Both the position numbers and the translations under genes were made by a program. A stretch of 64,000 bases of DNA from the NCBI GenBank assembly GCA_903828535.1, contig CAIKMN010000022.1, forward strand, positions 46,854 through 110,853, written 5' to 3'. The notes under the pieces are model-generated. The model had not been told where the DNA came from. It did no database searches and saw only the letters and a program-made list of their open reading frames with translations. The DNA comes from an uncultured Curvibacter sp. (GTDB taxonomy: Bacteria > Pseudomonadota > Gammaproteobacteria > Burkholderiales > Burkholderiaceae_C). Below, in pieces: positions 32,666-49,877 of the stretch (position 1 is its first letter; the number at the start of each line of letters is the position of its first letter).

Positions 32666-32697
32666 GTTGACCTAAATAAAGGTTTATTTTGGTCAAC
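32666..32697. promoter_or_regulatory. 32-bp near-perfect inverted repeat (GTTGACCTAAATAAA-GG-TTTATTTTGGTCAAC, one mismatch)
   Basis: Read directly from the sequence. It sits in the divergent gap between the GST gene and the small exported protein gene. Confidence 0.35.
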
Positions 32698-32772
32698 ACC
32701 CCAGCCACTGAGGCCGTTGAATGGGTACTCCAAATCGTTGGAGCTTTTGATAACCAACCTCAAGGACTCATC

Positions 32773-33078: not shown

Positions 33079-33104
33079 TTCGAAAAACCTGAGTCGCATC
33101 TGCC

Positions 33105-34064
33105 TCAAGCCGCTTCAGCCATCAAAAAATCTCGGCTGATGCGGCCGCCCAAATCATTGACCCGGTCTAAGAATCGGGTCAAAAACGCGTGCAGGCCCAT
33201 GACCTCAATTTCATCGATCCGTGCGTATTGAAGTTCCGTCTGCAATTTGCCTGCCCAACGCATGGTTTCGCTGGAGGTGCCAGCCACCACAACAGATAAA
33301 TTTTCAACCACCTCGTTCAAGCATGCGTGCAAGGATCGGGGCATGTCGGCTCGCAAAATAAGCAACTCGGCGACGCGCTCGGGTTTGATGACATCGCGGT
33401 AGACCTTGCGGTAAATCTCAAACGCAGAGACGCTCCGCAAAATCGCACTCCAGTGATAGAAGTCGTACTCTTGGTCTTTGTCGGTGGCGGCACCAAAGAA
33501 GTCACTCTCGACCGCGTGGTACTTCACATCGACCAATCGGGCCGTGTTGTCGGCGCGCTCTAAGAAGGTGCCGAGTCGCATGAAATGCAACGCCTCATCC
33601 ATCAACATGGTGCCGACCGTCACGCCTCGTGATTGATGCGAACGCACTTTGACCCATTCAAAAAACTGGGCTGGGTCTTGCTCAAATTCACCCGCCTTCA
33701 ACATGCGGTTGAGCTCCAACCAGGTTTGGTTTTGAGTTTCCCAAACCTCGGTGGTCAAAGCACCGCGCACGGCCCGGGCGTTTTCACGCGCAGCACGCAA
33801 ACAAGAGACGATGGAAGACGGATTGCTCTCATCCTTGACCATGAATTCCATGACCTTTTCGGGCACGACGTCGCCGTGTTTGCTTTGGTAAGCAGACAGC
33901 AACTCGCTGATGGACAGCAAGCCTTGCCAGCCCACCAAAGCCACCGCGTCGGACTGCGGCAAGAGCGAGGTTTGGTAGTTAACGTCCAACATGCGGGCAG
34001 TGTTTTCGGCGCGCTCGGTGTAGCGAGACATCCAAAACAAGTGATCGGCGGTTCTTGACAACAT
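33105..34064 (-). CDS. alpha-E domain-containing protein (DUF403 type)
   Basis: The N-terminus MLSRTADHLFWMSRYTERAENTARM is the alpha-E hallmark. The gene starts 2 nt after the ATP-grasp stop. Confidence 0.85.
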   Translation of the reverse strand: MLSRTADHLFWMSRYTERAENTARMLDVNYQTSLLPQSDAVALVGWQGLLSISELLSAYQSKHGDVVPEKVMEFMVKDESNPSSIVSCLRAARENARAVRGALTTEVWETQNQTWLELNRMLKAGEFEQDPAQFFEWVKVRSHQSRGVTVGTMLMDEALHFMRLGTFLERADNTARLVDVKYHAVESDFFGAATDKDQEYDFYHWSAILRSVSAFEIYRKVYRDVIKPERVAELLILRADMPRSLHACLNEVVENLSVVVAGTSSETMRWAGKLQTELQYARIDEIEVMGLHAFLTRFLDRVNDLGGRISRDFLMAEAA

Positions 34065-34066
34065 AC

Positions 34067-35548
34067 TTAAACCTCCAAAATCCAAGTGTCCTTGGTGCCG
34101 CCACCTTGCGACGAATTCACCACCAAGGAGCCTTCTTTTAAGGCGACGCGGGTCAAGCCACCGGGTACCATTTGCACGGTCTTACCCGACAACACAAAAG
34201 GCCTTAAATCGATGTGACGCGGGGCGATGCCGGCGTCGACAAAAGTGGGGCAACTCGACAAGCTCAAGGTAGGTTGGGCAATGTAGCGGGCGGGGTCGGC
34301 CAGCAAAGCGGCGCGGAAGTCTTCAATTTCTTGCTGGGTGGCCGCGGGGCCGACCAACATGCCGTAGCCCCCCGCCCCATGGACCTCTTTGACAACCAAC
34401 TCAGACAGATGGTCCAGGGTGTATTTCAGGTCATCGGGCTGGCGGCACAAGTAAGTGGGCACGTTGTTCAGAATCGGTTTTTCGCCCAAATAAAACTCGA
34501 TCATGGCCGGTACGTAGGGGTAAATGGACTTGTCGTCGGCGATGCCGGTACCACAAGCGTTGCAAATGCCCACGTTGCCAGCGCGGTAGGCCCGCATCAA
34601 ACCCGAGACGCCCAAAGTGGAATTGGCGCGGAACACTTCGGGGTCTAAAAAATCATCGTCGACGCGACGGTAAATCACGTCCACTCGCTTCAAACCCCGG
34701 GTGGTACGCATCCAGACAAAGTCGTCTTTGACCACCAAGTCTTGGCCTTCCACCAGTTCCACGCCCATTTGTTGGGCCAAGAACGCGTGCTCAAAATAGG
34801 CACTGTTGTACATGCCAGGCGTCAGCACGACCACGGTGGGTTCGGTATTAGAAGACGGGGCGCTGGCGCGCAGGGTTTCGAGCAACAAATCGGGGTAATG
34901 GGCCACCGGAGCGACCCGGTGCTGACTGAACAAATCCGGAAACAGTCGCATCATCATCTTGCGGTTTTCCAACATATAGGAAACGCCGCTTGGGACACGC
35001 AAGTTGTCTTCGAGCACAAAGTATTCGCCTGCACCTGAGGCGGTGGGTGCCCGCACAATGTCGATGCCGGAGATGTGGGAATAAATTTGATTGGGCACCG
35101 AAACGCCCATCATGACTTGACGAAATTGCGCGTTGTTTTCGACCTGCTCCCGCGGCACGATGCCTGCCTTCAGGATTTCTTGATCGTGGTAAACGTCGTG
35201 GATGAATCGGTTCAGGGCCGTGACCCGCTGCACCAAACCGGCTTCCATGCGGTTCCATTCTTGGGCAGGAATGATGCGGGGAATCAGGTCGAACGGGATT
35301 AAGCGCTCGGTGCCGGCGCCGTCCTCGTCCTTGGCGCCGTAGACCGCGAAGGTGATCCCCACGCGCCTGAAAATCATTTCGGCTTCTGCACGGCGGGCCT
35401 GCATGGTGGCATTGGGCTGTTGTGCCAACCACTGGGCATAGCTGCGGTAATGCTCACGAAGAGGCAGATCAAACGCCAAATGGGAAGAAGTCTCCAACAC
35501 GGCGGACTGACTCTTCAGAGCCTCAAACATTTCATCAAATAGCTTCAT
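34067..35548 (-). CDS. circularly permuted type-2 ATP-grasp protein (DUF404/DUF407 type)
   Basis: It has motifs VSYMLENR, TPGMYNSAYFEHAFLAQQMG and VVKEVHGAGGYGM. ATG 35548 has a GGGAGAG SD. It is paralogous to 43457-46096. Confidence 0.87.
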   Translation of the reverse strand: MKLFDEMFEALKSQSAVLETSSHLAFDLPLREHYRSYAQWLAQQPNATMQARRAEAEMIFRRVGITFAVYGAKDEDGAGTERLIPFDLIPRIIPAQEWNRMEAGLVQRVTALNRFIHDVYHDQEILKAGIVPREQVENNAQFRQVMMGVSVPNQIYSHISGIDIVRAPTASGAGEYFVLEDNLRVPSGVSYMLENRKMMMRLFPDLFSQHRVAPVAHYPDLLLETLRASAPSSNTEPTVVVLTPGMYNSAYFEHAFLAQQMGVELVEGQDLVVKDDFVWMRTTRGLKRVDVIYRRVDDDFLDPEVFRANSTLGVSGLMRAYRAGNVGICNACGTGIADDKSIYPYVPAMIEFYLGEKPILNNVPTYLCRQPDDLKYTLDHLSELVVKEVHGAGGYGMLVGPAATQQEIEDFRAALLADPARYIAQPTLSLSSCPTFVDAGIAPRHIDLRPFVLSGKTVQMVPGGLTRVALKEGSLVVNSSQGGGTKDTWILEV

Positions 35549-35658
35549 AGCGCTCTCCCGCGGATAGCCAAGCAATATACGCGCCAATCATGACTTGCCT
35601 TTGGCCCACCTTAGCAGAGGCGACACGCCACTAAACGGTTCTGGGTTAAAAATCCTGC

Positions 35659-37209
35659 ATGCCCAACTCGAATGAACCCACCCCATCAGAATCCCTGCTC
35701 AACCTGAGCGCCGTGTCCCTTAGCCGCGCCGTGCAAGCCAGAGCGCTGTCTTGCCAAGAGGTGATGCAGGCCACGCTGGCCCAAATTGACCGATTCAACC
35801 CCGAGGTCAACGCCCTTGTTTCACTGCGCGATCCCGAGGTTTTATTAAAAGAAGCCCAAACCAAGGACCAAGTTCTGGCCCAGCACAGTGAACGTCATAC
35901 CCCCAAGGGCTGGCTTTTCGGTCTGCCCCAAGCCCCCAAAGACCTCAGTCCAGTGGCCGGCTTGCTCACCACCCAAGGCAGCCCGTTGTTGGCCACACAA
36001 ACAACGCCCCGCGACAACCTCATGACGGCCCGTTTACGGGCTGCTGGCTGCATTTTTATTGGCAAGACCAACACGCCCGAGTTTGGTCTGGGCTCGCAAA
36101 CCCACAACCCCGTCTTTGGCACCACCCTGAACGCTTGGGACAGCCGACTCACGGCGGGCGGCAGCAGTGGCGGCGCGGCGGTGGCTTTGGCGCTGAATAT
36201 GCTGCCCGTCGCCGACGGCAGCGACATGATGGGCTCGCTGCGCAACCCCGCCGGCTGGAACCACGTTTATGGCCTTCGCCCCAGTCTGGGGCGGGTCCCC
36301 AAGGGACCTGACCCGGATATGTTCTTCCAACAACTCGGCACCGAGGGGCCGATGGCCAGGAACCCTCAAGATTTGGCTTGGCTGCTGGCCACGCAGTCAG
36401 GCTACGACCCGAGTGCCCCCTTGAGCTTGTCTGGCAACGGCGATGAAACTGGTTTCTTCGGCAGCCTTGACGCTGACTTGAACGGCCGCCGCCTGGCTTG
36501 GCTGGGGGATTTGAACGGCTATTTGGCGATGGATCCCGGCGTCCTCGCCTTGTGCGAAGCGGCCTTGCCCCACTTTCAAACGCTGGGCTTGGGCGTCGAG
36601 GCGATGGTCCCTGAGTTTCAATACGAGCGGCTTTGGACCACTTGGCTGCACCTGCGGGGCTTTACCGTGGCAGGGAATTTACGCGAGTTTTACAACAACC
36701 CCAAAACCCGCCCCTTGCTCAAACCCGAGGCCCAATGGGAATCAGAACAGGGACAAGGATTGCTCGCCAGCGACGTCTTCACCGCGTCCGTCTGGCGCAC
36801 CCGCTGGTACCAACGCTTGGTGAAATGCTTTGAGCATTTTGATTACTTGGCGCTGCCCAGCGCCCAAACCTTTCCTTTTTCTGCTGACCTGCATTGGCCA
36901 GCGGAGGTCGGGGGGCGGGCCATGGACACCTACCACCGCTGGATGGAGGTGACCATTTACGCCACCCTGGCGGGGCTGCCCGCCATTTGTCTGCCCGCTG
37001 GGTTTTCTGAGGCCGGTTTGCCGATGGGCATCCAAGTCATTGGCCGCCCCCGCGATGAAGGGTCTTTGCTGCAATTGGCACAAGGATGGCACCAAGCCGT
37101 GCCCTTCATGGATCGCCGTCCGCCTCGGCTGGGTCGGGCAAGTCGTTCGGATCTTTTGGATCGTTCCTATCGTTCCAATAGTGTCGGTTCACCTCACGCT
37201 CGCAAATGA
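35659..37209 (+). CDS. amidase-signature family amidase
   Basis: It has the AS motifs (PKDLSPVAGLLTTQGS, GGSSGGAAVALA, GSDMMGSLRNPA). The C-terminal ~33 aa overlap the comEC tail. Confidence 0.87.
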   Translation: MPNSNEPTPSESLLNLSAVSLSRAVQARALSCQEVMQATLAQIDRFNPEVNALVSLRDPEVLLKEAQTKDQVLAQHSERHTPKGWLFGLPQAPKDLSPVAGLLTTQGSPLLATQTTPRDNLMTARLRAAGCIFIGKTNTPEFGLGSQTHNPVFGTTLNAWDSRLTAGGSSGGAAVALALNMLPVADGSDMMGSLRNPAGWNHVYGLRPSLGRVPKGPDPDMFFQQLGTEGPMARNPQDLAWLLATQSGYDPSAPLSLSGNGDETGFFGSLDADLNGRRLAWLGDLNGYLAMDPGVLALCEAALPHFQTLGLGVEAMVPEFQYERLWTTWLHLRGFTVAGNLREFYNNPKTRPLLKPEAQWESEQGQGLLASDVFTASVWRTRWYQRLVKCFEHFDYLALPSAQTFPFSADLHWPAEVGGRAMDTYHRWMEVTIYATLAGLPAICLPAGFSEAGLPMGIQVIGRPRDEGSLLQLAQGWHQAVPFMDRRPPRLGRASRSDLLDRSYRSNSVGSPHARK

Positions 37210-39721
37210 GCTGATTTGGTGCATTCGAAGCCCAAGTGGCGGCACCACATTGGGGTGAACTCACCAATTCGAGGCCTAAATTTTGGTATCGACTGACCAC
37301 CTTGGGCGCGGGATGGCCAAAACGGTTGCGGTAACCCGCCTGCACGAAGGACCAGCGCGGCGACACCGCCCGCAAAAAAGTTTGGTTGGATGAGGTGTTG
37401 CTGCCGTGATGCGGCACGAGCAAGAAATCGGCTTTCAAAGCGGCCTCGTCACGAATCAGCAAATCTTGCTCCTGGGGCATTTCGATGTCCCCCACCAACA
37501 AAGCGCGCCGAACTGAACCCACACCACTGGAGATCCGAAGGACACAACTGAGGGCATTGGTTTTGACCGGCTTGGCCGACGGATCTCTCGACGAAGCGAG
37601 GTCTTGCAGCAAAGGGTGAAGCACCTCAAAGTCCACCCCGTCCCAGCGCCAATGCTGGCCGGCCATGCAGGGCAACACCGAGCCGGTGCGCCTTGACTGC
37701 CCTTGATTCTCGCCTTGTTTTTCTCCTTGTTTGTCTAGGAGCAACGGGTGTTCGGGTTCCAAAGATGACCACAACGAGGCCTGGGGATAAGCCGCCAACA
37801 CGGAGGCGGCGCCCCCGGTGTGGTCGCTGTCGCGGTGGCTGAGCATGATGCGGTCGAGGGGCTCTTGGGTCCGCTTGAGCAGGGGCACGAGCACACGTTG
37901 ACCGGCGTCACTTTCGCTGGTGTTGCGAGGTCCTGAGTCGTACAAGAGGGTGTGCGTTTGGGTTCGCAAGATCACCGCATTGCCTTGACCGATGTCGGGC
38001 GCGAGCACTTCAAATTCACCCCATGGCGGGCGAGGCGCTTGCCACAAAACCATGGGAAGCACCCAAGGCAGGCCCAACAAGCGCAAACGCCAAGGCCCCG
38101 GAAAAACCAAAATCACAGCACCGCATAAACCCAGCACATCCAACCAAGCCGGTGCCGCCGCGACCGACCAACTGCTCACCGGCCCCGCCGCCAACCCATC
38201 CAACAGCCACAGCAAACCCTGCACCGCAAGCGCCGCCAAATTCCACAAGGGCGACCACAGCACACCCAAAAAAGCCAGCGGCGTCACGACAAAGGTCACC
38301 CAAGGAATGGCGATCAGATTGGCCAGCAAACCCAATACCGAGACCTGACCAAACAAAATCCAGGTCAACGGGGCCAAGGCCAAGGTCATCAGCCCCTGTT
38401 CGCGCAACAACAACGCCCCGTGGTGCTTCAACCAGGCCTTCCCTGAACCGGATTTGGCGCCTGACTTTGACCCCAATGAAGGTGCTGTGCTTTGGGGCGC
38501 ACCCGCCCCGCTGATGAACAAAACGCCCACCGCCAAAAAACTCAGCCAAAACCCCGCTTGCAGCAAAGCCCAAGGATCCCAAAGCACCACCACGGCGGCA
38601 CTGCTCAGCCAGATCAACCCACTCGGCCAGCGCTTGGCGCTGGTCTGCAAAGCCGTCACGACGCCGAGCATCAACACCGTTCGTTGCGCAGGGATGCCCC
38701 ATCCGCAAAATGCCGAGTAGGCCAACGCCACGGCCCAACCGCCCCACCGACCGGCAGTGACCGCGGGGCAATACAACATCAATCGTTCACTGCGACGCCA
38801 ACACCACGCGATGACCCGGCCGCCCAGCCACGCCAGCAAGGTGATGTGCAGCCCTGAAATGCTCATCAAATGGGCGACACCGGTCCGACGAAACAAGTCC
38901 CAATCTTTGCCGTCAATCGCTTGCTGATCGCCGGTGACCAAGGCCACCACCACGCCGGCGCTGCGGCGCTCAGGCAGCGCTTGCCAAATGGCAGACCGCA
39001 CGGACTGACGGGCGCTTTCAATGGGGTGCATCCACGCCGTTGCACCCCGATTCGGGGGTGGATTCAACAGCAAGGGGGGCATCACATTCGAGCCTGTTCG
39101 CACCGTGCCTGTGGCGCCGTAACCCTGCTCCCAAAGCCAAAGCTCACCGTCAAAACCGCCGGGGTTAAAGAGGCTGTGTGGCCGCTTCAGCCGCACGGTG
39201 AAGCGCCAATGGTCGCCCACCTGCAATTCAGGCACCGGCTTATCTGGGCTGTACCAACCCAACCACAACAGGGCGGGAATGGGGGGTTTGAGTCCTTGAT
39301 CTGGATCGCCTTTTGCGTCAGGGGCGAATTCGAAGCGCCAGCCATCCTGTCCCATTTGGGGCAGGCTCACCACCACCCCGCTGACCAACCAGTCCACCGA
39401 CTCGGCGGCCGTCGACAACACCTGGGCGGCCCGAACCGTCGCGCGCCAGCCGGTCCCCCCAAAGGCCATGGCAACGGCCACAAGCCCACTCAAAACCAAC
39501 CCGACCCCCCGCCCGAAAGGGCCCCTTCTAATCAGCCCAAGCAACAGAACAGCGCCAACCATCGCCACACCGAGCACCGTCAAATAAAGGGGCAACGGCC
39601 AAAGCGCCCTTTGCTGCAATTGCAAGGCAGTCCCCAGCAACAGTCCGAGACACCCAGGCCCAACGGAGGGCCAAGGCAGTCGCAGGCGGTCAAACGCCTT
39701 GAGGGCAAAAGGGGCGGTCAT
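37106..39721 (-). CDS. comEC: DNA internalization-related competence protein ComEC/Rec2
   Basis: It has a multi-TM competence domain (VAHLMSISGLHITLL) and a C-terminal metallo-beta-lactamase domain (MLSHRDSDHTGG, LVPHHGS). Confidence 0.9.
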   Translation of the reverse strand: MTAPFALKAFDRLRLPWPSVGPGCLGLLLGTALQLQQRALWPLPLYLTVLGVAMVGAVLLLGLIRRGPFGRGVGLVLSGLVAVAMAFGGTGWRATVRAAQVLSTAAESVDWLVSGVVVSLPQMGQDGWRFEFAPDAKGDPDQGLKPPIPALLWLGWYSPDKPVPELQVGDHWRFTVRLKRPHSLFNPGGFDGELWLWEQGYGATGTVRTGSNVMPPLLLNPPPNRGATAWMHPIESARQSVRSAIWQALPERRSAGVVVALVTGDQQAIDGKDWDLFRRTGVAHLMSISGLHITLLAWLGGRVIAWCWRRSERLMLYCPAVTAGRWGGWAVALAYSAFCGWGIPAQRTVLMLGVVTALQTSAKRWPSGLIWLSSAAVVVLWDPWALLQAGFWLSFLAVGVLFISGAGAPQSTAPSLGSKSGAKSGSGKAWLKHHGALLLREQGLMTLALAPLTWILFGQVSVLGLLANLIAIPWVTFVVTPLAFLGVLWSPLWNLAALAVQGLLWLLDGLAAGPVSSWSVAAAPAWLDVLGLCGAVILVFPGPWRLRLLGLPWVLPMVLWQAPRPPWGEFEVLAPDIGQGNAVILRTQTHTLLYDSGPRNTSESDAGQRVLVPLLKRTQEPLDRIMLSHRDSDHTGGAASVLAAYPQASLWSSLEPEHPLLLDKQGEKQGENQGQSRRTGSVLPCMAGQHWRWDGVDFEVLHPLLQDLASSRDPSAKPVKTNALSCVLRISSGVGSVRRALLVGDIEMPQEQDLLIRDEAALKADFLLVPHHGSNTSSNQTFLRAVSPRWSFVQAGYRNRFGHPAPKVVSRYQNLGLELVSSPQCGAATWASNAPNQLICEREVNRHYWNDRNDPKDPNDLPDPAEADGDP

Positions 39722-39927
39722 GCTTCAGCATGCCGCAGTGCTTTGATTTCAGTGGGCCCTGGGCAAGCCATTGAACCTGCACCGAGCTCCCTTGGTCAGC
39801 CCACAATCCAAATGCTGTCGTTCCCGAGTTTTTAAGTTGCTTTTCTTGACTTCTCGCGACTTTGCAGGGCTTGTCACAGACATTTGGCGCATCTCTTGCT
39901 AGGATAAAGAATCAAGAAGGTTCACCC

Positions 39928-42900
39928 ATGTCCATTCACGCTGCGCTTAACCACATCACCCACTACCGATACGACCGCCCTATCGAGTTGGGCCCACAAG
40001 TGGTTCGTTTGCGCCCTGCACCGCATTGCCGCAGCAAGGTGATTTCTTATTCGCTGAAGATGGAGCCTTCAGATCACTTCATCAACTGGCAACAAGACCC
40101 TTTTTCTAATTACCAAGCGCGTTTGGTTTTCTTGAAGCCGACCACCGAGTTCAAAGTCACGGTGGACTTGGTCGTGGAAATGGCGGTTTACAACCCCTTC
40201 GACTTTTTCTTGGAGCCCGAGGCCGAGAACTTCCCGTTCGCCTACAACGACGAAGTCAAACAAGAACTCGCCCCTTACCTCGCAAAAGCCCCACTCACGC
40301 CCTTGTTGGCCAAGTACTTGGCCCAAATTGACCGCACCGAGCGGCGCACGATTGATTTTTTGGTGGACATCAACCAAAAGCTCCAGCAAGACATTGACTA
40401 CACCATCCGCATGGAACCGGGCGTGCAAACGCCCGAGGAAACCTTGAGCAAAGGATCGGGCTCTTGCCGAGACACGGGTTGGTTGTTGGTTCAACTGCTG
40501 CGTCACTCGGGCTTGGCGGCACGCTTTGTGTCGGGCTACTTGATTCAACTCAAGCCCGACGTCAAATCCCTCGACGGTCCCAGCGGCACCGAGGTTGACT
40601 TTACCGACCTGCACGCCTGGTGCGAAGTGTATTTGCCGGGGGCGGGCTGGATTGGCCTCGACCCCACCTCCGGCTTGATGGCCGGAGAAGGTCACATTCC
40701 GCTCGCTTGCACCCCCCAACCCTCAGGTGCTGCGCCGGTGGAGGGCCTGATCGACGAATGCGAGGTGACCTTCGAGCACCACATGGCCGTGACCCGCCTT
40801 TACGAGTCGCCTCGCGTCACTTTGCCTTACACAGAGGCGCAATGGGCCGCCATACAAGCATTGGGCGAAGCCGTCGACCAAGAATTGGTTGAAGGCGATG
40901 TGCGCCTGACCATGGGCGGCGAACCCACTTTTGTGTCCACCATGGACCGCGAAGGCGCAGAGTGGAACACCGCTGCGCTGGGCCCGACCAAACGTGGCTA
41001 CGCGGGAGAATTGGTGCACAAACTGCGTGAGCACTATGGCCAAGGCGGTTTCTTGCATTTTGGTCAAGGCAAGTGGTACCCCGGCGAGCAACTGCCGCGT
41101 TGGGCCTTGTCGATTTGCTGGCGCGCCGATGGCCAACCGATCTGGCAAAACCCGGCGCTCTTTGCCGACGAGCGCGACCCCCAGCAATACACCGCCGAGG
41201 ACGCCCAACGTTTCATCCAACATTTGGCGACCCGACTGGGCTTGAGCACGCGCTACATCCAACCGGGCTATGAAGATGTTTTTTATTACCTTTGGCGCGA
41301 ACGCCGCTTGCCGGTCAACGTCGACCCGTTTGACGCCAAGTTGGACGACGAACTCGAGCGCGCCCGTTTGCGCCGCGTTTTCGAACAAGGCCTCGACAAG
41401 GTCGTCGGTTATTTGATCCCGATTGAAGCTTTGCCTGGCGCCAACGCCCTGAGCGGCCCCCACTGGCGCACCGGCCCTTGGTTCATGCGCGATGAGCGTT
41501 TGTATTTGATGCCCGGCGATTCGCCCATGGGCTATCGCCTGCCACTCGATTCCTTGCCCTGGGTGACGTCTGCTGACTATCCCTATGCCCAAGAACGGGA
41601 CCCGATGGAGCCCCGTGGCCCGTTGCCCAGCGCCGATGACTTCCAGAGAATGGCGCGCATTTCCCGCGAAGCAGAGGCGCCGCGCGTGACGCAAAGCCGA
41701 AGCAGCGCCAACTCGGGGGTCTCTGAGGTCGCAGGCGACAGGGCCAGCAACAGACAGACGAGCGCTGCACTTGACAAGCCCCCGGCACGTTTTGAGTCGG
41801 CCCATTGGATCACCCGCACCGCGCTGTGCGTGGAGGCCCGTGACCCGGCCCGTGCCAATGGCCCCACTTTGACCGACAGCACGGCCTCCAAAGCCTTGTA
41901 TGTTTTCATGCCGCCTTTGCAACATTTAGAGGACTACTTGGCTTTGCTGGCCGCCGTCGAAGCCACGGCCGAAGCGTTGCAAGTTCAAATCGTGCTGGAA
42001 GGCTACCCACCCCCACGAGACCCTCGCCTAAAGCTCCTTCAAGTCACCCCCGACCCCGGCGTCATCGAAGTCAACATCCACCCCGCCCACAACTGGGGCG
42101 AGTTGGTAGAACACACCGAGTTCCTTTACCAAGCGGCCTTTGAGACCCGATTGACTGCTGAAAAGTTCATGACCGATGGCCGTCACACCGGCACCGGTGG
42201 TGGCAACCACTTTGTGCTGGGTGGCGCCACACCGGCCGACAGCCCCTTCCTGCGCCGACCCGAGTTGTTGGCCTCGCTGATTTTGTATTGGCACAACCAC
42301 CCGTCTTTGAGCTACCTGTTTTCGGGCATGTTCATTGGACCTACCTCGCAAGCCCCGCGGGTGGATGAGGCCCGCAACGACCAGTTGTACGAACTGGAAA
42401 TTGCCCTCGAGCAAATTCACAAAAATCGTGCCATTTATGGCGACAGTTTGCCGCCCTGGTTGGTCGACCGCACACTGCGGAACATCTTGATTGACGTCAC
42501 CGGCAACACCCACCGCAGTGAGTTCTGCATCGACAAGCTCTATTCGCCAGACTCGAGCACCGGTCGCTTGGGCTTGTTGGAACTTCGGGCCTTCGAGATG
42601 CCACCCCATGCCCGCATGAGCATTGCCCAGCAATTGCTCTTGCGCGCCTTGGTCGCGCGTTTCTGGCAAACACCTTACCAAGCGCCGGTAGCGCGTTGGG
42701 GCACCACATTGCACGACCGTTTCTTGCTGCCGAGTTTTGTGAAAATGGACTTTGAAGACGTCATGGAAGACCTTCGCCAAGCGGGTTACGCCTTTGACTC
42801 CTCTTGGTTTGCACCGCACTTTGAATTCCGTTTCCCCCTCGTGGGCAGCCTCAAAATCCTGGGCATGGAACTGACGCTTCGAAACGCTTTGGAGCCTTGG

Positions 42901-43380
42901 CATGTGATGGGCGAAGAGGGCAGCGCCGGCGGCACGGTGCGCTATGTGGACTCGTCCTTGGAGCGCATCGAAGTGCGCGTCAATGGCTTCAATGACCAGC
43001 GTTATGTCATCACCGTCAACGGGCAACCGTTGCCGCTGCAACCCACTGGCGTGCAACAAGAGTATGTGGCGGGTGTCCGCTACAAAGCCTGGAACCCGCC
43101 TTCAGCGCTGCACCCTTCCATTGGCGTGCACGCCCCCTTGGTGATCGACGTTTTCGACACCTGGTCCCAGCGCGCTGTCGGCGGTTGTCAATACCATGTG
43201 GCCCACCCCGGCGGGCGAAACTACGTAACCTACCCTGTCAACGCTTACGAGGCGGAAAGCCGTCGCTTGGCCCGCTTCTTTGAAATGGGCCACACCCCGG
43301 GCGCCGTTCAATGGCCGACCTCCGCGGTGGGACAACCGGGTTCGAAGGAATTTCCGTTCACCTTGGATTTGCGGCGCTGA
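39928..43380 (+). CDS. large transglutaminase-like / DUF2126 family protein
   Basis: The N-terminus (HITHYRYDRPI) is followed by a transglutaminase core with Cys/His/Asp (GSGSCRDTGW, DLHAWCEVY, GLDPTSG) and then ~800 aa I cannot assign. ATG 39928 has an AAGAAGG SD. Confidence 0.87.
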   Translation: MSIHAALNHITHYRYDRPIELGPQVVRLRPAPHCRSKVISYSLKMEPSDHFINWQQDPFSNYQARLVFLKPTTEFKVTVDLVVEMAVYNPFDFFLEPEAENFPFAYNDEVKQELAPYLAKAPLTPLLAKYLAQIDRTERRTIDFLVDINQKLQQDIDYTIRMEPGVQTPEETLSKGSGSCRDTGWLLVQLLRHSGLAARFVSGYLIQLKPDVKSLDGPSGTEVDFTDLHAWCEVYLPGAGWIGLDPTSGLMAGEGHIPLACTPQPSGAAPVEGLIDECEVTFEHHMAVTRLYESPRVTLPYTEAQWAAIQALGEAVDQELVEGDVRLTMGGEPTFVSTMDREGAEWNTAALGPTKRGYAGELVHKLREHYGQGGFLHFGQGKWYPGEQLPRWALSICWRADGQPIWQNPALFADERDPQQYTAEDAQRFIQHLATRLGLSTRYIQPGYEDVFYYLWRERRLPVNVDPFDAKLDDELERARLRRVFEQGLDKVVGYLIPIEALPGANALSGPHWRTGPWFMRDERLYLMPGDSPMGYRLPLDSLPWVTSADYPYAQERDPMEPRGPLPSADDFQRMARISREAEAPRVTQSRSSANSGVSEVAGDRASNRQTSAALDKPPARFESAHWITRTALCVEARDPARANGPTLTDSTASKALYVFMPPLQHLEDYLALLAAVEATAEALQVQIVLEGYPPPRDPRLKLLQVTPDPGVIEVNIHPAHNWGELVEHTEFLYQAAFETRLTAEKFMTDGRHTGTGGGNHFVLGGATPADSPFLRRPELLASLILYWHNHPSLSYLFSGMFIGPTSQAPRVDEARNDQLYELEIALEQIHKNRAIYGDSLPPWLVDRTLRNILIDVTGNTHRSEFCIDKLYSPDSSTGRLGLLELRAFEMPPHARMSIAQQLLLRALVARFWQTPYQAPVARWGTTLHDRFLLPSFVKMDFEDVMEDLRQAGYAFDSSWFAPHFEFRFPLVGSLKILGMELTLRNALEPWHVMGEEGSAGGTVRYVDSSLERIEVRVNGFNDQRYVITVNGQPLPLQPTGVQQEYVAGVRYKAWNPPSALHPSIGVHAPLVIDVFDTWSQRAVGGCQYHVAHPGGRNYVTYPVNAYEAESRRLARFFEMGHTPGAVQWPTSAVGQPGSKEFPFTLDLRR

Positions 43381-43456
43381 GTGTTGGACAGGGGCTGTTC
43401 CCCCTTGCAGCCACTTCAGCAACTTCAGCAACACCTGAACCTGTCAGAATCTGAGC

Positions 43457-46096
43457 ATGGATAAAATCGGCCACAGCCACCCCTTGCTCAGCAGTTTGCC
43501 TTGGCTCAAATCGGCAGCCAATGGCGAATTTGATGAGCTGCTGGGCCGCACCGTTGACGCCAAAACAGCAGCCCGCTCAACGGCGGATGGACTGCAGCTT
43601 TCAGACCTGAGCTTGATTTGGCAGGCTTTCTTTGAGGCCGCCGCCACCGGCGACTTGGCGACACCGGCGGATTTCGATCAACGCCTGGCTCAAATCAAGC
43701 AACAAATTCAAGATAACGGCGTGACCTACAACGTCTACGCCGAAAGCAGTGGGCCGCAACGCGCTTGGGCGGTCGATTTGTTTCCACTCATCATCAGCCC
43801 CGACACCTGGGCCCACATTGAAACCGGCGTCATCCAGCGTGTTCGTGTGCTCGAGCGCCTGATGGCCGATGTGTATGGCCCTCAAACCTTGCTGCGTGAA
43901 GGCTTGATCCCGGCCGCCTTGGTGCAAGGCAACCCTGGCTATTTGCGCGAGATGCACGGCGTCCAACCAGCGGGCGGACATTTTCTGCACTTGGTGGCAT
44001 TCGACATGGCGCGTGGCCCCGATGGTCTGTGGTGGGTCGTCGGTCAGCGAACACAAGCGCCCTCTGGTTTGGGTTATTTGCTGGAAAACCGTCTGGCGGT
44101 GTCACGCCAATTTCCATCGGCCTTTGAGTCCCTCAAGGTGCAGCGCTTGGCCAGCACGTACCGCGCTCTGATCGAAGGCCTTAAAGCCCACAGCCCCGCC
44201 GGTGAAGATGCCCACATTGCGTTGCTCACGCCGGGCCCTTATAGCGAGACCTATTTCGAGCACGCTTATCTGGCCCGCTACTTGGGGCTGACCTTGGTCG
44301 AAGGCAACGACTTGACGGTGCGAGACCAGCACTTGTTTTTGAAGACAGTCGAAGGTTTGATGCCAGTTCATGGCTTACTCAAACGTTTGGATGACGAGTA
44401 TTTAGACCCACTCGAACTAAGGCCCGACTCCAGCCTGGGGGTTCCAGGGCTGTTACAAGCCATTCGCGCAGGCCATGTGTTGGTGGCCAACATGCCGGGC
44501 TCGGCCTTTTTGGAGTCGCCTGCTTTGCTGGGTTTTCTGCCCGCTTTGGCCGAGCATTTAATTGGCGAAGAACTGCAATTGCCGGCCGTGCCCACTTGGT
44601 GGTGCGGCGAACCCGCGGTGCTGAAAGAAGCGCTGGCTGCGTTGCCCGAGTCGGTGATTAAACCCACTTTCCCGTTCAGCTACCACCCCATGAGCACCCG
44701 TTATTCGTTTACTTCTGTGGCGGGTCAAGGCCTGAGCGAAGCCGAGCGAAGCGAATGGGCAGAGCGCATCCGGCGTCAACCCGACGAACACACCATTCAA
44801 AGTGCCATGCCTTGGTCGGCGTTGCCGATTTGGAAAACCGACCCCAGCGCCCCCCCCACCCAACGAGGTCACCTTGAACACCACCCCACGGTGTTGCGCG
44901 TGTTTGCGGTTCGAACTTCTGATGACCAGTGGCGCGTGTTGCCAGGCGGCATGGCGCGGATTGTGGGCGACAACGCCGAAATGGCCTCCATGCAACGGGG
45001 TGGCGGCAGTGCCGATGTGTGGGTTCAAACCCACGGCGTGGTCGACAAAACCACCTTGCTCACCGCTGCGAAAACACCCACCGCGGTGTTGGCCAGCAAA
45101 CGGGTGGTGACCAGCCGCTCGGCTGAAAATTTATTTTGGTTGGGCCGTTACACCGAGCGCAGCGAGAACACCGCCCGCTTGGCCAAACTCGTCTTAATCA
45201 GTCTGAACAGCGGCGCCAGCCGTTCAGAGCCTCTGATGCAATGGCTAAACGACTTGTCCGTTCAGGCCGGACTGGTGTTACCCAGCGTGCCCTCCGCTGC
45301 TTTGTCTAAGCGGGTCTTTGAGCGCTCCTTGATCAACGGGCTCAGCGCTCAACGCAACCGCGACACCCAAAGTGTGGGATTCAATTTGCGCGCCTTAAGG
45401 TCGGCCGCCGACTCGGTGCGGGAGCGTTTGTCACCAGAAACTTGGTCTTTGATTTTGCACACCGAGTCTTCTTTCGAGCAGACCTTGAAAAGTCCACAAA
45501 ACGAAGGCATGAATCCCAACCAAGCCATTCAAGCCTTGGCTGCGGTCAGCATGAACATGGCCGCCATCACCGGGGCTCAAACCGACCGCATGACCCGCGA
45601 CAATGGCTGGCGCTTGATGGCCATTGGCCGTCAACTTGAGCGCATGTGGTTTTTATCGAGTGCCTTGCAAAAGGCCCAAGCCACAGGGCTTTGGGACCAA
45701 GTCGCTGGTTTTGAAGCCCTCTTGGCCCTGTTTGACAGCACCATCACCTTCCGTGCCCAATTCCAACAAAGTCGTGAATTGCTGCCACTGCTGTCCTTGT
45801 TGGTGATGGCCCCAGACAACCCGCGCGCCTTGGCCTGTGTGTGCGACGCCTTGCGACGCCGCGTCAAAGGTTTGACGGGCAGCCAAGCCAACGGGCAATT
45901 GAACACCGTGTCGCTGACGCTGCCCGACCCCAGCAGCTGGACCTTAGAAGGGTTGGTCAGCGCGCCTTCTGACGAAGTGCCCAATTTGGTTCAGGTGCTC
46001 AAAGAATGCCAGGACGCCGCCCTGAACCTCTCTGACAGCAGCAGCGCTTTGTATTTCACCCACTCCCTGAATACCAACAAAATTCTCGGCGCCTGA
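43457..46096 (+). CDS. circularly permuted ATP-grasp :: alpha-E fusion protein
   Basis: The N-terminal half aligns with 34067-35548 (YLLENR, TPGPYSETYFEHAYLARYLG). The C-terminal half has the alpha-E hallmark NLFWLGRYTERSENTARL. Confidence 0.87.
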   Translation: MDKIGHSHPLLSSLPWLKSAANGEFDELLGRTVDAKTAARSTADGLQLSDLSLIWQAFFEAAATGDLATPADFDQRLAQIKQQIQDNGVTYNVYAESSGPQRAWAVDLFPLIISPDTWAHIETGVIQRVRVLERLMADVYGPQTLLREGLIPAALVQGNPGYLREMHGVQPAGGHFLHLVAFDMARGPDGLWWVVGQRTQAPSGLGYLLENRLAVSRQFPSAFESLKVQRLASTYRALIEGLKAHSPAGEDAHIALLTPGPYSETYFEHAYLARYLGLTLVEGNDLTVRDQHLFLKTVEGLMPVHGLLKRLDDEYLDPLELRPDSSLGVPGLLQAIRAGHVLVANMPGSAFLESPALLGFLPALAEHLIGEELQLPAVPTWWCGEPAVLKEALAALPESVIKPTFPFSYHPMSTRYSFTSVAGQGLSEAERSEWAERIRRQPDEHTIQSAMPWSALPIWKTDPSAPPTQRGHLEHHPTVLRVFAVRTSDDQWRVLPGGMARIVGDNAEMASMQRGGGSADVWVQTHGVVDKTTLLTAAKTPTAVLASKRVVTSRSAENLFWLGRYTERSENTARLAKLVLISLNSGASRSEPLMQWLNDLSVQAGLVLPSVPSAALSKRVFERSLINGLSAQRNRDTQSVGFNLRALRSAADSVRERLSPETWSLILHTESSFEQTLKSPQNEGMNPNQAIQALAAVSMNMAAITGAQTDRMTRDNGWRLMAIGRQLERMWFLSSALQKAQATGLWDQVAGFEALLALFDSTITFRAQFQQSRELLPLLSLLVMAPDNPRALACVCDALRRRVKGLTGSQANGQLNTVSLTLPDPSSWTLEGLVSAPSDEVPNLVQVLKECQDAALNLSDSSSALYFTHSLNTNKILGA

Positions 46097-46110
46097 TTCA
46101 GGAAACGACC

Positions 46111-46995
46111 ATGTATTTGGGCATCACCCACGAAACGCGCTACCACTATCAACCTGCCGTTGGCACCGCGATGCACATCGCGCACATGAAGCCGCGCGAG
46201 ACGCAACACCAGCGACTGCTCAGTCACCAACTGAATATCCTCCCCGAAACCGAGCACAAACAAGAGGTGTTGGATGTTTTTGGCAACACCTCGCAGTATT
46301 TTTCACTGCAAACGGTGCACACCGAATTGGTGGTCACCGCGCGCAGCGTCGTTGAAACCATCAACGGCCCGACCCTCGCGCTGGCAGAAAGCCAAGCCTG
46401 GGAATCGGTACGAGCGCATTTTCGCTACCGGGCTGGCGTGGCGTTTGACCCGGCCAATGAGTTTGTTTTTCCCTCACCCTATGTCCCTTGGGCACCTGAA
46501 TTTGCCGCCTTTGCCCAAACGGAATTCAAAGCAGAGAAGCCCCTGTTTTTAGCGGTGCAGGGCTTGATGCAAAAAATTCACGGTGAATTTAAATACGACC
46601 CCAAGAGCACCGAAGTCAGCACACCCGCCCTCGAGGCCTTGCGCCAGCGCAAAGGCGTCTGCCAAGACTTTGCCCACATCATGATTGCTTGCTGCCGGAA
46701 CCTGGGACTGCCTGCTCGCTACGTCAGCGGTTATTTGCTGACCGAGCCACCGCCCGGCCAACCCCGTCTGATTGGCAACGACGCCACCCACGCTTGGGTC
46801 TCGGTCTACGACCCTCAACAAGGCGTTTGGCTGGACTTTGACCCGACCAACAACCGACTGCTCGGCGAGGACTACGTGACCGTTGCGTGGGGCCGAGATT
46901 TCGGCGACGTCTCGCCCATGCGGGGCGTCATCCACGGCGGGGCCAACCACACCTTGGAAGTCGCGGTGACGGTCGAGCCACTGAAGATTGAGTGA
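46111..46995 (+). CDS. transglutaminase-like cysteine peptidase family protein
   Basis: It has a Bact_transglu_N-type N-terminus (ITHETRYHY) and a core with Cys/His/Asp (KGVCQDFAH, THAWVSVY, DFDPTN). It lies 14 bp after the previous gene. Confidence 0.9.
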   Translation: MYLGITHETRYHYQPAVGTAMHIAHMKPRETQHQRLLSHQLNILPETEHKQEVLDVFGNTSQYFSLQTVHTELVVTARSVVETINGPTLALAESQAWESVRAHFRYRAGVAFDPANEFVFPSPYVPWAPEFAAFAQTEFKAEKPLFLAVQGLMQKIHGEFKYDPKSTEVSTPALEALRQRKGVCQDFAHIMIACCRNLGLPARYVSGYLLTEPPPGQPRLIGNDATHAWVSVYDPQQGVWLDFDPTNNRLLGEDYVTVAWGRDFGDVSPMRGVIHGGANHTLEVAVTVEPLKIE

Positions 46996-47070
46996 GGCCG
47001 AGCTCCGTAAAATGGGGCCCTTGTTTGAAATCACTCGACCTCTTTTTTCCTACTGACTCAAAGTCCCGCC

Positions 47071-47526
47071 ATGAACGTCTACGAACAACTCCAATCCCTG
47101 AACATCAATTTGCCCGCTGTGGCGACGCCTGCGGCGGCCTACGTGCCCTTTGTGCGCAGTGGCAACTTGGTTTATTTGTCGGGCCACATTGCCAAAAAAG
47201 ACGGCGTGGTTTGGACGGGTCAATTGGGCAAAAACATCAGCACCGAAGAAGGTAAATTGGCTGCACGTGCCGTCGCCATTGACTTGCTGGGCACCTTGCA
47301 CGCGGCGGTCGGTGACTTGAATCAAATTAAGCGCATCGTCAAAGTGATGAGCTTGGTGAACTCAACAGCCGACTTCACCGAACAGCACTTGGTGACCAAT
47401 GGCTGCAGCGAGTTGTTGGGCCAGGTTTTTGGCGCCGCCGGCGCGCACGCCCGCAGCGCCTTTGGCGTGGCCCAAATCCCCATGGGCGCTTGCGTGGAGA
47501 TTGAGTTGATTGCAGAAGTGGCCTAA
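47071..47526 (+). CDS. RidA/YjgF family protein
   Basis: It resembles the YjgF/RidA family (GNLVYLSGHIA, ARSAFGVAQIPMGACVEIE). Confidence 0.86.
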   Translation: MNVYEQLQSLNINLPAVATPAAAYVPFVRSGNLVYLSGHIAKKDGVVWTGQLGKNISTEEGKLAARAVAIDLLGTLHAAVGDLNQIKRIVKVMSLVNSTADFTEQHLVTNGCSELLGQVFGAAGAHARSAFGVAQIPMGACVEIELIAEVA

Positions 47527-47561
47527 GGCCACCTTCCACCGCTTCAACGGACGTTTTATTT

Positions 47562-49877
47562 TTATTCCACGCGAATCAAGCGCTCGGGCTTGAAGCCCAA
47601 ATCAGCCAACTTGCCCTTGCGTCCCCTGGGCGCTCGGGCATTGTTGAGCGAACGAACTTCCAAGGTTTCATCGCGCGCTTTGCCGCCGCGGCCAGTGCCT
47701 TCAATGCGGACGCTGCGGGTGTAGGCGACCGCACCAGCAAGCCGGTCTTTGGCCTCCAAGTCGATCAACATCAGACCGCGTCCGCCTTTTTCTTGCAGCT
47801 TCAAATCAGAGAGTTCAAAGGTCAAGATGCGCCCCCCCAGAGAGGCGCAAGCCACGTGGGTGGCGCCTTGCGCCAGAGAAGGCGTGCACAAAGTCTCGCC
47901 CTCGGCCACGGTGACAAAAGACTTGCCGCTTTTGTTTCGCGAGACCATGTTCTCGACGGTCGCCAAAAATCCATAACCACCCGAACTCGACAAGAGCAAA
48001 GGCGTCGCCGCAGCGCCAGCAAAGTAATGCGCAGGCTGGGTGCCAGGCTCCAAGTCGATCAAGGTGGTGACCGGTTGACCATCGCCCCGTGCACCAGGCA
48101 AAGCGGCCACAGACACCGAGTAGACCCGGCCCCTGTTGCCGAACACCAACAGGGTGTCGACCGTGCGGCACTCGAAGGTGCCGTAAAGGCCGTCGCCGGC
48201 TTTGAAGGCAAAACTGGCGGCTTCATGCCCATGGCCATTGCGGGCCCGCACCCAGCCTTTTTCTGAGACCACCACCGTGACGGGTTCGTCGACAATTTTG
48301 ACTTCGGCCACCGCGCGTTTTTCTTCTTGAATCAAGGTGCGACGGGGGTCGGCAAATTGCTTGGCATCGGCTTCGATTTCTTTCACCATCAAACGCCGCA
48401 GACTATTGGGGTTGGCCAAAATGTCTTCGAGCTTGCCCTGCTCTTCAAACAATTCTTTCAGCTCTTGCTCGATCTTGATGGCTTCCAAACGCGCCAGTTG
48501 ACGCAATCGAATCTCAAGAATGTCTTCGGCCTGGCGGTCCGACAACTTGAAGCGCTCGATCAAGGCCGTCTTCGGCTCATCCGATTGGCGAATGATGGCG
48601 ATCACCTCATCGAGGTTGAGCAGCACGGTTTGCCGCCCTTCCAAAATGTGGATGCGGTCGCGCACCTTGTCCAAGCGGTGCTGGCTGCGGCGGGTGATGG
48701 TGGTTTGGCGGAACTCAATCCATTCGGCGAGCATTTGGCGCAAGGATTTTTGCGTGGGCCGACCGTCCAAACCGATCAGGGTCAAGTTGATTGGCGCGGA
48801 GGTCTCTAGGCTGGTGTGGGCCAGCAAGGTGGTGATCAGCTCCGTTTGGCTGATCTTGCTGGTTTTAGGCTCAATGACCAAGCGGACCGGCGCGTCTTTG
48901 CTGGACTCGTCGCGTACCGCGTCGACCACCGCCAACACGGTGGCTTTCAGCAGGTTTTGTTCGGAAGACAAGGCTTTTTTGCCGGCCTTGACTTTGGGGT
49001 TGGTGATTTCTTCCACCTCCTCCAAGACCTTTTGCGTGCTCACGCCGGGTGGCAGTTCGTGCACCACCAACTGCCATTGACCGCGCGCCAGTTCTTCAAT
49101 TTTCCAACGCGCCCGCACTTTGACCGAGCCACGGCCGGTTCGGTAAGCCTCGGCCAAGTCGTGCGCCGAGCTGATGATTTGACCGCCGCCAGGGTAGTCG
49201 GGGCCGGGCAAAAAGGCCGCCAAATCGGCGTCGCTGAGTTGCGGGCTTTTGATCAAGGCCACGCAGGCATCGGCCACTTCACGCAGGTTGTGGCTCGGTA
49301 TTTCAGTGGCCAAACCGACTGCAATGCCACTGGCACCGTTCAACAAAGAAAAGGGCAACCGCGCAGGCAAGCGTTGTGGCTCGGTGGTCGAGCCGTCGTA
49401 GTTGGGGCCAAAGTCGACCGTGCCTTGGTCAATCTCGTCCATCAACAAGCCGCTGATTTTGGCGAGGCGAACTTCGGTGTAGCGCATGGCGGCGGCGCCG
49501 TCACCGTCGCGGCTGCCAAAGTTGCCTTGACCGTCGACCAAGAGATAGCGCTGGCTGAAGTCTTGGGCCATGCGAACCATCGCGTCGTAAGCCGCTTGGT
49601 CGCCATGGGGGTGGAATCGCCCCAGCACGTCGCCCACCACCCGCGCGCTCTTGACAGGGCGCGCGGCGGTGTTGCCACTGAAGTCCAAGCCCATTCGGGA
49701 CATGGCATACAGAATGCGGCGTTGGACCGGCTTTTGGCCATCGCTGATGTCGGGCAATGCCCGGCCTTTGACGACGCTCAGGGCATATTCGAGATAAGCC
49801 TGCTGCGCGTAATCGGCCAGGCTCAGGCCGCCGTCGGCACCACCGGAGGCGAGTTCTAAAGTCACTTGTTCAGTCAT
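47562..49877 (-). CDS. parC: DNA topoisomerase IV subunit A
   Basis: It has the GyrA/ParC N-terminal domain with the active-site AAMRYTE. The ~771 aa length and pairing with parE favour ParC. Confidence 0.94.

Follow-up and report, generated by a model that had tools for sequence, protein, structure and literature searches.

The stretch considered here is a window of 64,000 nt (the whole stretch of DNA that was analysed) on contig CAIKMN010000022.1 of an uncultured Curvibacter sp. (GCA_903828535.1), and its subject is a run of three co-directional open reading frames (ORFs): ORF1 (39928-43380, +; 1150 amino acids (aa) from an ATG start), which encodes a Bact_transglu_N, Transglut_core and DUF2126 protein; ORF2 (43457-46096, +; 879 aa), an apparently degenerate circularly permuted ATP-grasp domain fused to Alpha-E; and ORF3 (46111-46995, +; 294 aa), a stand-alone transglutaminase-like thiol enzyme. 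The reading that we favour, at a probability of roughly 55%, is that these genes make up the larger half of a five-gene system that is conserved, soluble and cytoplasmic, is controlled by sigma-54 and is probably activated by an NtrC-type regulator in nitrogen starvation. The smaller half lies on the minus strand, 4-7 kb upstream of ORF1, and consists of an unfused circularly permuted ATP-grasp gene with all catalytic motifs (34067-35548, -; 493 aa) and an unfused Alpha-E gene with two ER-motif repeats (33105-34064, -; 319 aa). The system itself is already known from computational description (Iyer/Aravind 2008-2009; Pfam); the window holds an ordinary orthologue of it, and the findings set out below are neither specific to this window nor likely to surprise a specialist.

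A predicted pseudo-ligase and its intact counterpart

By Pfam, both ATP-grasp proteins are clear members of their families. In ORF2, CP_ATPgrasp_2/1 spans residues 110-502 (43784-44962; 458/313 bits) and Alpha-E residues 552-867 (45110-46057; 185 bits), and the unfused ATP-grasp and Alpha-E proteins score 560 and 334 bits, respectively. The unfused ATP-grasp is ~75% identical to PDB 3n6x over its full length (E 1e-208), against an identity of only ~30% for the N-terminal half of ORF2, and the homologue alignments (61 unfused and 68 fused sequences, then 83 unfused and 122 fused) locate the difference in the residues of catalysis: E193, N195, R197 and D460 are kept in 83/83 unfused vs 0/122 fused homologues. 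The ATP-grasp motif E193-x-N195-x-R197-x-P-S-G, whose E-x-N is the Mg2+-binding pair of ATP-grasp enzymes such as D-Ala-D-Ala ligase and the glutathione synthetases, is always kept in the unfused family, and ORF2 reads G196-Q-R198-T-Q200 where that family has E-D-N-L-R. The Gly-rich loop K400-E401-V-H-G-A-G-G-Y-G, also always kept among the unfused proteins, is replaced by K402-P-T-F-P-F-S in ORF2, with P403 in place of E401 (the ATP-binding Lys of this loop is partly kept in the fused family, in 87/122), and the equally constant D351-D352-K353 has given way to E-S-P. In the 122-homologue census of the fused family, D460 has become Met, Val, Gly or Leu (V479 in ORF2) and K499 mostly Ala.

The residues that took the place of the catalytic ones are themselves conserved in the fused family (Q197 99%, R198 94%, Q200 100%, E353 99%, S354 100%), and this speaks for a non-catalytic role that the ORF2 ATP-grasp has kept. 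The shared non-catalytic motifs YLLENR and TPGPY..YFEH..LARYLG are kept in ORF2 as well. An AlphaFold2 model of ORF2, with a predicted local distance difference test (pLDDT) score of 73, matches 3n6x (E 8e-25) and 2hgs, 8fbz and 3kal (E 1e-9 to 1e-7) in fold, with further matches to YgiC, to the trypanothione synthetase-amidase 2vps and to eukaryotic glutathione synthetases. Motifs and model together characterise ORF2 as a predicted conserved and folded, non-catalytic ATP-grasp fused to Alpha-E, and the only ATP-grasp of the system that is predicted from its motifs to be competent is encoded by the unfused gene at 34067-35548 (-). The preliminary description of this DNA, made from the sequence by eye, had made ORF2 the one ligase, a role that the loss of E-x-N-x-R, the Gly-rich loop, E401, D460 and DDK across the fused family takes away; of the catalytic residues that it had assumed to be conserved, those of the ORF2 ATP-grasp are lost and those of the two transglutaminases are kept (see below). 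The duplicated ER motif of Alpha-E reads RYTERAENTARM and FLERADNTARL in the unfused protein, and RYTERSENTARL and RQLERM in ORF2.

A five-gene unit

Does the intact ligase belong with ORF1-3? Related loci were mapped by tblastn and blastp, 80 of them from genomes (Comamonadaceae, Burkholderia, Roseateles/Pelomonas, Ideonella, Rubrivivax and others) and 80 from metagenomes. The order ORF1, fused ORF2, ORF3 was found in 100/107 of the loci with at least 4.5 kb of downstream sequence, a recurrence far above chance. The operon proposed for these genes is likely, and their common plus strand and intergenic gaps of 76 bp (ORF1-ORF2) and 14 bp (ORF2-ORF3) are confirmed by ORF listing and translation. 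In 58/70 loci with wide flanks, the unfused ATP-grasp/Alpha-E pair lies within ~10 kb of ORF1-3. Three arrangements occur: the pair is divergent across ComEC, as in this window; or all five genes are co-directional in the order ATP-grasp, Alpha-E, transglutaminase::DUF2126, ATP-grasp::Alpha-E, transglutaminase (Roseateles, Ideonella, Paucibacter, Burkholderia); or the pair stands directly downstream of ORF3 (Rubrivivax, Aquabacterium). Because the intact ATP-grasp and the free Alpha-E are thus linked syntenically to ORF1-3, the system is one of five genes, not three, and reaches beyond the 39928-46995 block to which it had been confined.

The system falls into two modules. Module A is the intact ATP-grasp and Alpha-E (33105-35548, -), in which the Alpha-E ATG at 34064 stands 2 nt past the ATP-grasp stop codon on direct reading of the DNA; module B comprises the transglutaminase::DUF2126 protein, the dead ATP-grasp::Alpha-E fusion and the second transglutaminase (39928-46995). 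Seen another way, the five genes form two ligase/Alpha-E/transglutaminase triads: DUF2126 is attached to the transglutaminase of one, and the other has its ligase fused to Alpha-E. Hydrophobic segments are absent from all five proteins (ComEC, as a control, has many), from which we take the system to be soluble and, presumably, cytoplasmic.

As a separate observation, seven loci (L017, L051, L066, L070, L073, L077 and L080) have 1.5-4 kb of extra DNA between ORF1 and the fused ORF2, and the three-gene block is therefore not contiguous in every locus.

Transglutaminase triads and the DUF2126 domain

Pfam places Bact_transglu_N at residues 7-84 (39946-40179; 90 bits), Transglut_core at residues 130-246 (40315-40665; 65 bits) and DUF2126 at residues 276-1149 (40753-43374; 1350 bits) of ORF1, and finds Bact_transglu_N and Transglut_core (the latter with 84 bits) in ORF3. 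All Pfam scores in ORF1-3 are far over the curated cut-offs, and every domain that had been named by eye in the three proteins (Transglut_core, Bact_transglu_N, DUF2126, CP_ATPgrasp and Alpha-E) is borne out by its profile. The motifs quoted with those names are all present too, and both Cys-His-Asp triads are conserved, C180/H229/D245 of ORF1 being invariant in 63 homologues and C184/H227/D244 of ORF3 at least 95% conserved in 70. The transglutaminase part of ORF1 matches PDB 3isr in fold (Foldseek) and ORF3 matches it in sequence (E 1e-15); ORF3 is a paralogue of the ORF1 N-terminus, at 26% identity. Among distant ORF1 relatives that have a transglutaminase domain, the catalytic Cys is kept in 24/31 and lost in 7/31.

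No third transglutaminase or remnant of one follows the split Alpha-E gene in the window. In five related loci (L020, L023, L061, L094 and L115) an extra stand-alone transglutaminase gene stands after the split Alpha-E, and in the Burkholderia loci L050 and L064 one stands between Alpha-E and ORF1; these extra enzymes are 31-40% identical to ORF3 and complete a canonical ligase/Alpha-E/transglutaminase triad.

The remaining ~800 aa of ORF1 had been left unassigned in the preliminary description. This stands insofar as our own fold and profile comparisons gave no assignment; it does not stand against the existing record, since Pfam names DUF2126 a 'putative amidoligase' and Iyer et al. 2008 (PMC2588565) describe the Rv2566 type as a transglutaminase fused to a carboxylate-amine/ammonia ligase domain, and group the C-terminal domain of that family with PafA in the carboxylate-amine ligase superfamily. 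DUF2126 is very widespread, with >8000 close homologues of ORF1 and 6394 DUF2126-containing clusters at 50% identity in a whole-library search. An alignment of diverse DUF2126 homologues drawn from that search (A3; 59 sequences counted, 33-58% identity) contains ~25 near-invariant charged positions (Glu, Asp, His or Arg), each in at least 50/59 sequences. The conserved positions are E332, E387, E714, N716, H761, R811, D813, E814, D856, H862, R863, E865, D869, E885, R887, E890, R906, D930, R968, R985, E989, R1005, D1008, R1013 and R1051. These near-invariant charged residues give DUF2126 the look of an enzyme whose active site is charged; they are compatible with the carboxylate-amine ligase superfamily, and not specific to it. 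About half of the distant DUF2126 proteins in A3 (~700-850 aa) are without a transglutaminase domain. The most conserved portion of ORF1 is C-terminal (residues ~655-1150), and a variable linker of low model confidence (~575-625) parts an N-terminal sub-domain from it.

Sigma-54-type promoters and probable nitrogen regulation

As judged from the DNA sequence, modules A and B both carry -24/-12 promoters of the sigma-54 type. The motif TGGCGCATCTCTTGCT (39885-39900, +) is predicted to serve module B from 27 nt before the ORF1 ATG, and TGGCGCGTATATTGCT (35571-35586, -) to serve module A, with the ATG of its unfused ATP-grasp gene following 22 nt later. The pattern TGGCNCN5YTGCW has 4 matches on both strands of the window, vs 1.6 expected. 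The two others are probably chance matches: they lie at 22020-22035 (-), within or next to an electron transfer flavoprotein (ETF) subunit gene, and at 24672-24687 (-), inside the gene for an enoyl-CoA hydratase, both in a cluster for fatty-acid oxidation with acyl-CoA dehydrogenase, ETF alpha/beta and an MscS-like channel. The motif upstream of ORF1 recurs in 79/150 related loci, namely those in which ORF1 heads its own unit; loci with ORF1 behind a co-directional Alpha-E gene do not have it. In front of the unfused ligase gene, 65/81 loci have a GG-N10-GC element scoring at least 9/11 in a narrow positional band, against 2.3% for 120-nt windows drawn at random from these loci; the loci behind both counts are not phylogenetically independent. 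That the GG and GC blocks are kept over variable spacers indicates selection.

The promoters also bear on the gene starts. The true starts are ATG 39928, ATG 35548 and ATG 34064, each with a ribosome-binding site, and the mechanical ORF starts TTG 39862, TTG 35587 and TTG 34085 are too far upstream. Two of the three spurious extensions hold the sigma-54 promoter motifs, and TTG 39862 in particular is an unlikely start for ORF1 because such a motif lies inside that extension.

Which signal such promoters might answer is suggested by other genera, whose genes were matched to those of the window by annotation and gene order, not by sequence. In Burkholderia cenocepacia H111, the genes I35_5080-5083/BCAM1233-1236, annotated as DUF404/407, DUF403, a transglutaminase and a large transglutaminase protein, show some of the strongest dependence on NtrC and sigma-54 of any genes when nitrogen is limiting; in an ntrC mutant, the changes tabulated for BCAM1233-1236 are -6 to -9.4, and these genes depend on sigma-54 as well (PMC5491218). 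In Pseudomonas putida, PP_2686-2688 are 11-37 fold up under nitrogen limitation, and PP_2685/PP_2688 show log2 values of 4.4/4.0 on nitrate vs ammonium (PMC7801951, PMC8050072). The family is among the gene sets most strongly induced by nitrogen starvation in both genera. A CP_ATPgrasp_1 gene of Bradyrhizobium has a predicted RpoN site.

Neighbouring genes

Between the unfused pair and ORF1 lie an amidase gene (35659-37209, +) and ComEC (37106-39721), and downstream of ORF3 lie RidA and parC/parE. The amidase belongs to the amidase-signature group (NCBIfam PRK07486 subfamily, 707 bits) and points away from the sigma-54 promoter that precedes the unfused ATP-grasp gene, across a 110-bp spacer. 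It is not at this position in nearly all of the 160 related loci and looks like an insertion specific to this window, curious as it is to find an amide hydrolase beside an amide-ligase system. The RidA/YjgF-family gene (47071-47526, +) begins 75 bp past ORF3. A hairpin at 47002-47018 is no stabler than shuffled sequence (z-score -0.08), which leaves no convincing intrinsic terminator after ORF3, and RidA could be co-transcribed with ORF3 here. The adjacency of RidA and ORF3 is kept in Comamonadaceae; loci of the Ideonella and Rubrivivax type have RidA next to ComEC, on the opposite side. Both genes were considered as members of the system and set aside, because the amidase is unconserved at this position and RidA follows ComEC in other genera.

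Other searches returned nothing. No RNA family of Rfam matches in 31000-48000, and no NCBIfam model matches any of the five proteins. An anti-phage defence reading was dropped, the PADLOC defence-protein models having no match to any of the five either. An ORF of 321 aa antisense to ComEC (38870-39835, +), with no Pfam match, is almost certainly spurious, and the strongest composition skews of the window (GC skew -0.17, AT skew +0.27) fall at 38-40 kb.

A proposed make-and-break cycle and its alternatives

What might such a set of proteins do? Fold chemistry suggests a cycle in which an amide bond is made and broken. The unfused ATP-grasp would spend ATP on turning a carboxylate into an acyl-phosphate, and would then join the activated group to an amine, giving a peptide or gamma-glutamyl-type amide, as with glutathione and glutathionylspermidine/trypanothione synthetase; DUF2126, a glutamine-synthetase/GCS2-like candidate, may be a second amidoligase. 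The two transglutaminase-fold domains with their Cys-His-Asp triads would hydrolyse or transfer the same type of amide through a thioester, which would give a make-and-break cycle like that of the GspS synthetase/amidase pair or of PafA/Dop. ORF2 and the free Alpha-E would be non-catalytic; their part may be to bind substrate or protein partners, and to arrange or control the complex. The role of the whole could be nitrogen scavenging, or remodelling of proteome and peptides when nitrogen is scarce.

Several results weigh against the five-gene reading or against this chemistry. The literature searched reports neither substrate, product nor phenotype for these families, in agreement with the preliminary description, and assigns no defined biochemical function to orthologues of the gene set. 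In 12/70 wide-flank loci the split pair is not nearby, and the modules may therefore not be strictly interdependent. No enterobacterial-type NtrC box (at least 10/13 to TGCACC-N4-TGGTGCA) was found upstream of either promoter, and no activator gene in the window, so that the activator proposed here is inferred from other genera, with the matching by annotation and gene order described above. Alpha-E has no PDB relative by fold or sequence, and its role is for that reason a guess. Comparison with PDB sequences and folds found no solved structure for DUF2126 either. The structure prediction and fold search that had been proposed for ORF1 gave a poor AlphaFold2 model (pLDDT 59.7, predicted template modelling score 0.47, from a 63-sequence alignment at 75-90% identity), and Foldseek with this model matched the transglutaminase domain only.

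Profile comparisons of DUF2126 had the same outcome. Profiles A1 and A3 retrieved only transglutaminases from the PDB sequences, and Pfam searches with sub-segments of the domain, at E up to 10, retrieved only DUF2126 itself. Comparison by hhalign of A3 with an alignment built on the Escherichia coli YbdK/GCS2 template (A4; 38 sequences) gave a probability of 0.2-1%, which is not significant, the template alignment being shallow (62-87% identity), and comparison with YbdK alone or aligned, whole or by sub-domain, was never significant. One sub-optimal and likewise non-significant hhalign alignment sets four GCS2 core motifs collinearly against conserved motifs of DUF2126 (CVE.R~GIELE, GVIEVN~MLEIAT, GGGNH~FGQHVH and LELRAFE~VEVRVMD). 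The ligase identity of DUF2126 rests on the literature, and our own profile and fold comparisons could not confirm it.

Two further reports concern Mycobacterium tuberculosis. Rv2567 and Rv2411c, picked as uncharacterised candidate enzymes with an ATP-binding domain, were tested for the synthesis of gamma-aminobutyric acid (GABA)-trehalose with negative result, and no other activity of theirs was tested in the literature searched. The transglutaminase-like Rv2569c has been reported as a cell-wall-associated serine protease (PMC11081392), a report at odds with a cytoplasmic amide cycle, with the chemistry of the fold and with the lack of export signals in the proteins of the window.

If the five-gene reading holds, what is ligated to what? 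One tentative answer is a small molecule: an amino acid or peptide would be ligated to an amine, such as a polyamine or another nitrogen compound, and later hydrolysed, in a manner resembling glutathionylspermidine synthetase/amidase or the gamma-glutamylation by PuuA/PuuD that serves the use of poor nitrogen sources. The fold neighbours of the ATP-grasp (glutathione, glutathionylspermidine and trypanothione synthetases, and YgiC) all speak for it, a polypeptide joining a transglutaminase, as thiol amidase, to a ligase mirrors the bifunctional 2vps, and the Burkholderia counterparts are co-regulated with urease and with uptake genes for urea, putrescine and amino acids (PMC5491218). However, no transporter or further catabolic enzyme is conserved nearby (the amidase at 35659-37209 being window-specific), and five large proteins, with two modules non-catalytic, seem excessive for a simple metabolite cycle; the failure of Rv2567/Rv2411c to make GABA-trehalose, the sole reaction tried, counts on the same side.

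Large multi-domain proteins with a pseudo-enzyme adaptor would better suit a macromolecular substrate, and this is the attraction of an unlikely but serious second answer, protein tagging, in which the ligases would add an amino acid or short peptide to side chains or termini of proteins and the transglutaminases would remove or transfer it, as a pupylation-like tag for turnover in nitrogen starvation. Elsewhere, the ATP-grasp/Alpha-E/transglutaminase triad shares an operon with Anbu (Fuchs et al. 2017; PP_2685); PafA is a member of the superfamily in which Iyer et al. place DUF2126, that of the carboxylate-amine ligases, and nitrogen starvation demands the recycling of protein. Against this, neither Anbu, a proteasome nor a small tag gene occurs among the annotated window neighbours or the mapped query genes, no Pup-like small ORFs stand beside these ligases (Iyer et al. 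2008, PMC2588565), the nearest relatives of the ATP-grasp in fold are small-molecule ligases, and Anbu co-expressed with its operon partners yielded no modified form (Fuchs et al. 2017). In its most explicit version, which we consider rather improbable, two unrelated ATP-dependent ligases would write an amino acid or peptide onto proteins as a post-translational mark under nitrogen starvation, two transglutaminase-fold enzymes would erase or transfer it, and the pseudo-ligase::Alpha-E would select the targets. If true, such a protein-modification cycle would be a bacterial counterpart of pupylation or of tubulin-type amino-acid ligation, and would explain the Anbu operon too.

There is little left of the preliminary proposal of a self-contained three-gene machine, with ORF2 as the ATP-dependent ligase working beside two thiol enzymes and an unassigned giant domain. 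The tight spacing and conserved order of ORF1-3, the strong CP_ATPgrasp match of ORF2 and the 12/70 loci without an unfused ATP-grasp inside 10 kb would all accord with it, and ORF2 keeps the adenine-hinge Gln448 and Arg481, so that nucleotide binding is possible. Yet the catalytic residues missing from all 122 fused homologues and the replaced Gly-rich loop, E401 and DDK motif make it very doubtful, and ORF2 evolves faster (34-63% identity among relatives) than ORF1 (60-77%) or the unfused ligase (~80%). The Pfam family texts add that inactive circularly permuted ATP-grasp forms are often or typically fused N-terminal to Alpha-E.

That the transglutaminase-like proteins are instead secreted or surface proteases of a virulence type, as claimed for Rv2569c, with operon partners unrelated to them, is scarcely credible, as neither ORF1 nor ORF3 has a signal peptide or a hydrophobic segment, the host is Comamonadaceae-like and the relatives are mostly environmental isolates and metagenome bins, strict synteny with the ligase genes argues for a joint intracellular function, and the activity of Rv2569c was stopped by serine-protease inhibitors and not by E-64 or N-ethylmaleimide (PMC11081392), which is hard to square with a Cys-His-Asp triad.

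Comparison with known systems

One point of reference is PafA/Dop, with which the proposed cycle would share a similar make-and-break logic on a gamma-glutamyl amide; here, no Pup-like small gene occurs near the ligases (PMC2588565) and no proteasome gene among the annotated window genes, and homology of the PafA superfamily to DUF2126 went undetected with our own profiles. Another is the group of GspS-type enzymes, in which an ATP-dependent amide synthetase is paired with a papain-like thiol amidase. Glutathionylspermidine/trypanothione synthetase-amidase and eukaryotic glutathione synthetase, the latter also circularly permuted, match the ATP-grasp in fold at 10-14% sequence identity; they have neither Alpha-E nor a pseudo-ligase, and in the GspS type the part of the amidase is taken by a CHAP domain joined to the ATP-grasp, whereas here it would be taken by a transglutaminase-fold domain, either fused to DUF2126 or stand-alone.

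Among gene sets, that of M. tuberculosis (Rv2566/Rv2567/Rv2569c and Rv2411c-Rv2409c) is actinobacterial, unlike the window, and the only biochemical claims made for it are the negative GABA-trehalose test and the disputed serine-protease activity of Rv2569c. Rv2567 presumably has the same fused architecture as ORF2. Rv2566 has been cited as a transglutaminase joined to a carboxylate-amine ligase, like ORF1 (PMC2588565). The nitrogen-limitation-induced Anbu operon of P. putida (PP_2688-PP_2685: circularly permuted ATP-grasp, Alpha-E, transglutaminase and Anbu) shares the triad (Fuchs et al. 2017; PMC7801951, PMC8050072), but has the proteasome-like Anbu peptidase and is without the DUF2126 giant and the pseudo-ligase fusion. 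The present system is thereby tied to the question of what Anbu, a proteasome ancestor, does. In B. cenocepacia H111, I35_5080-5083 follow the same order as the co-directional Burkholderia loci L050 and L064, a correspondence drawn from annotation and architecture, with no sequence alignment to H111; unlike the window, this is a single co-directional cluster, and it has an extra transglutaminase after Alpha-E.

From the system of Iyer and Aravind, the locus differs in nothing structural. Iyer, Abhiman, Burroughs and Aravind are said to have described this same architecture in Mol Biosyst in 2009, and to have predicted for it the synthesis or modification of peptides, a prediction now >15 years old. 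The locus is therefore not the undescribed system that the preliminary description had taken it for: the same architecture is set out in the Iyer/Aravind and Pfam texts, and its apparent Burkholderia counterparts figure as NtrC targets in papers on the NtrC/sigma-54 regulon. Both the locus and that system have an active circularly permuted ATP-grasp protein and an inactive one joined to Alpha-E; both also have Alpha-E as a separate protein, a transglutaminase, and a further transglutaminase placed N-terminal to a putative carboxylate-amine ligase in one polypeptide. Unlike in that system, no match to Anbu (an NTN-hydrolase) is found by Pfam among the annotated neighbours in the window, this component being optional, and the genes are split here into two divergent sigma-54 units by ComEC and the amidase. 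What the present analysis adds is the census of active and inactive ATP-grasp proteins, the five-gene unit, corrected start codons and the conserved sigma-54 promoters; and three points, the pseudo-enzyme fusion, the placing of the ligase in a separate sigma-54 unit and the probable membership in a nitrogen-stress response, sharpen the experiments that can now be addressed to this widespread family of systems.

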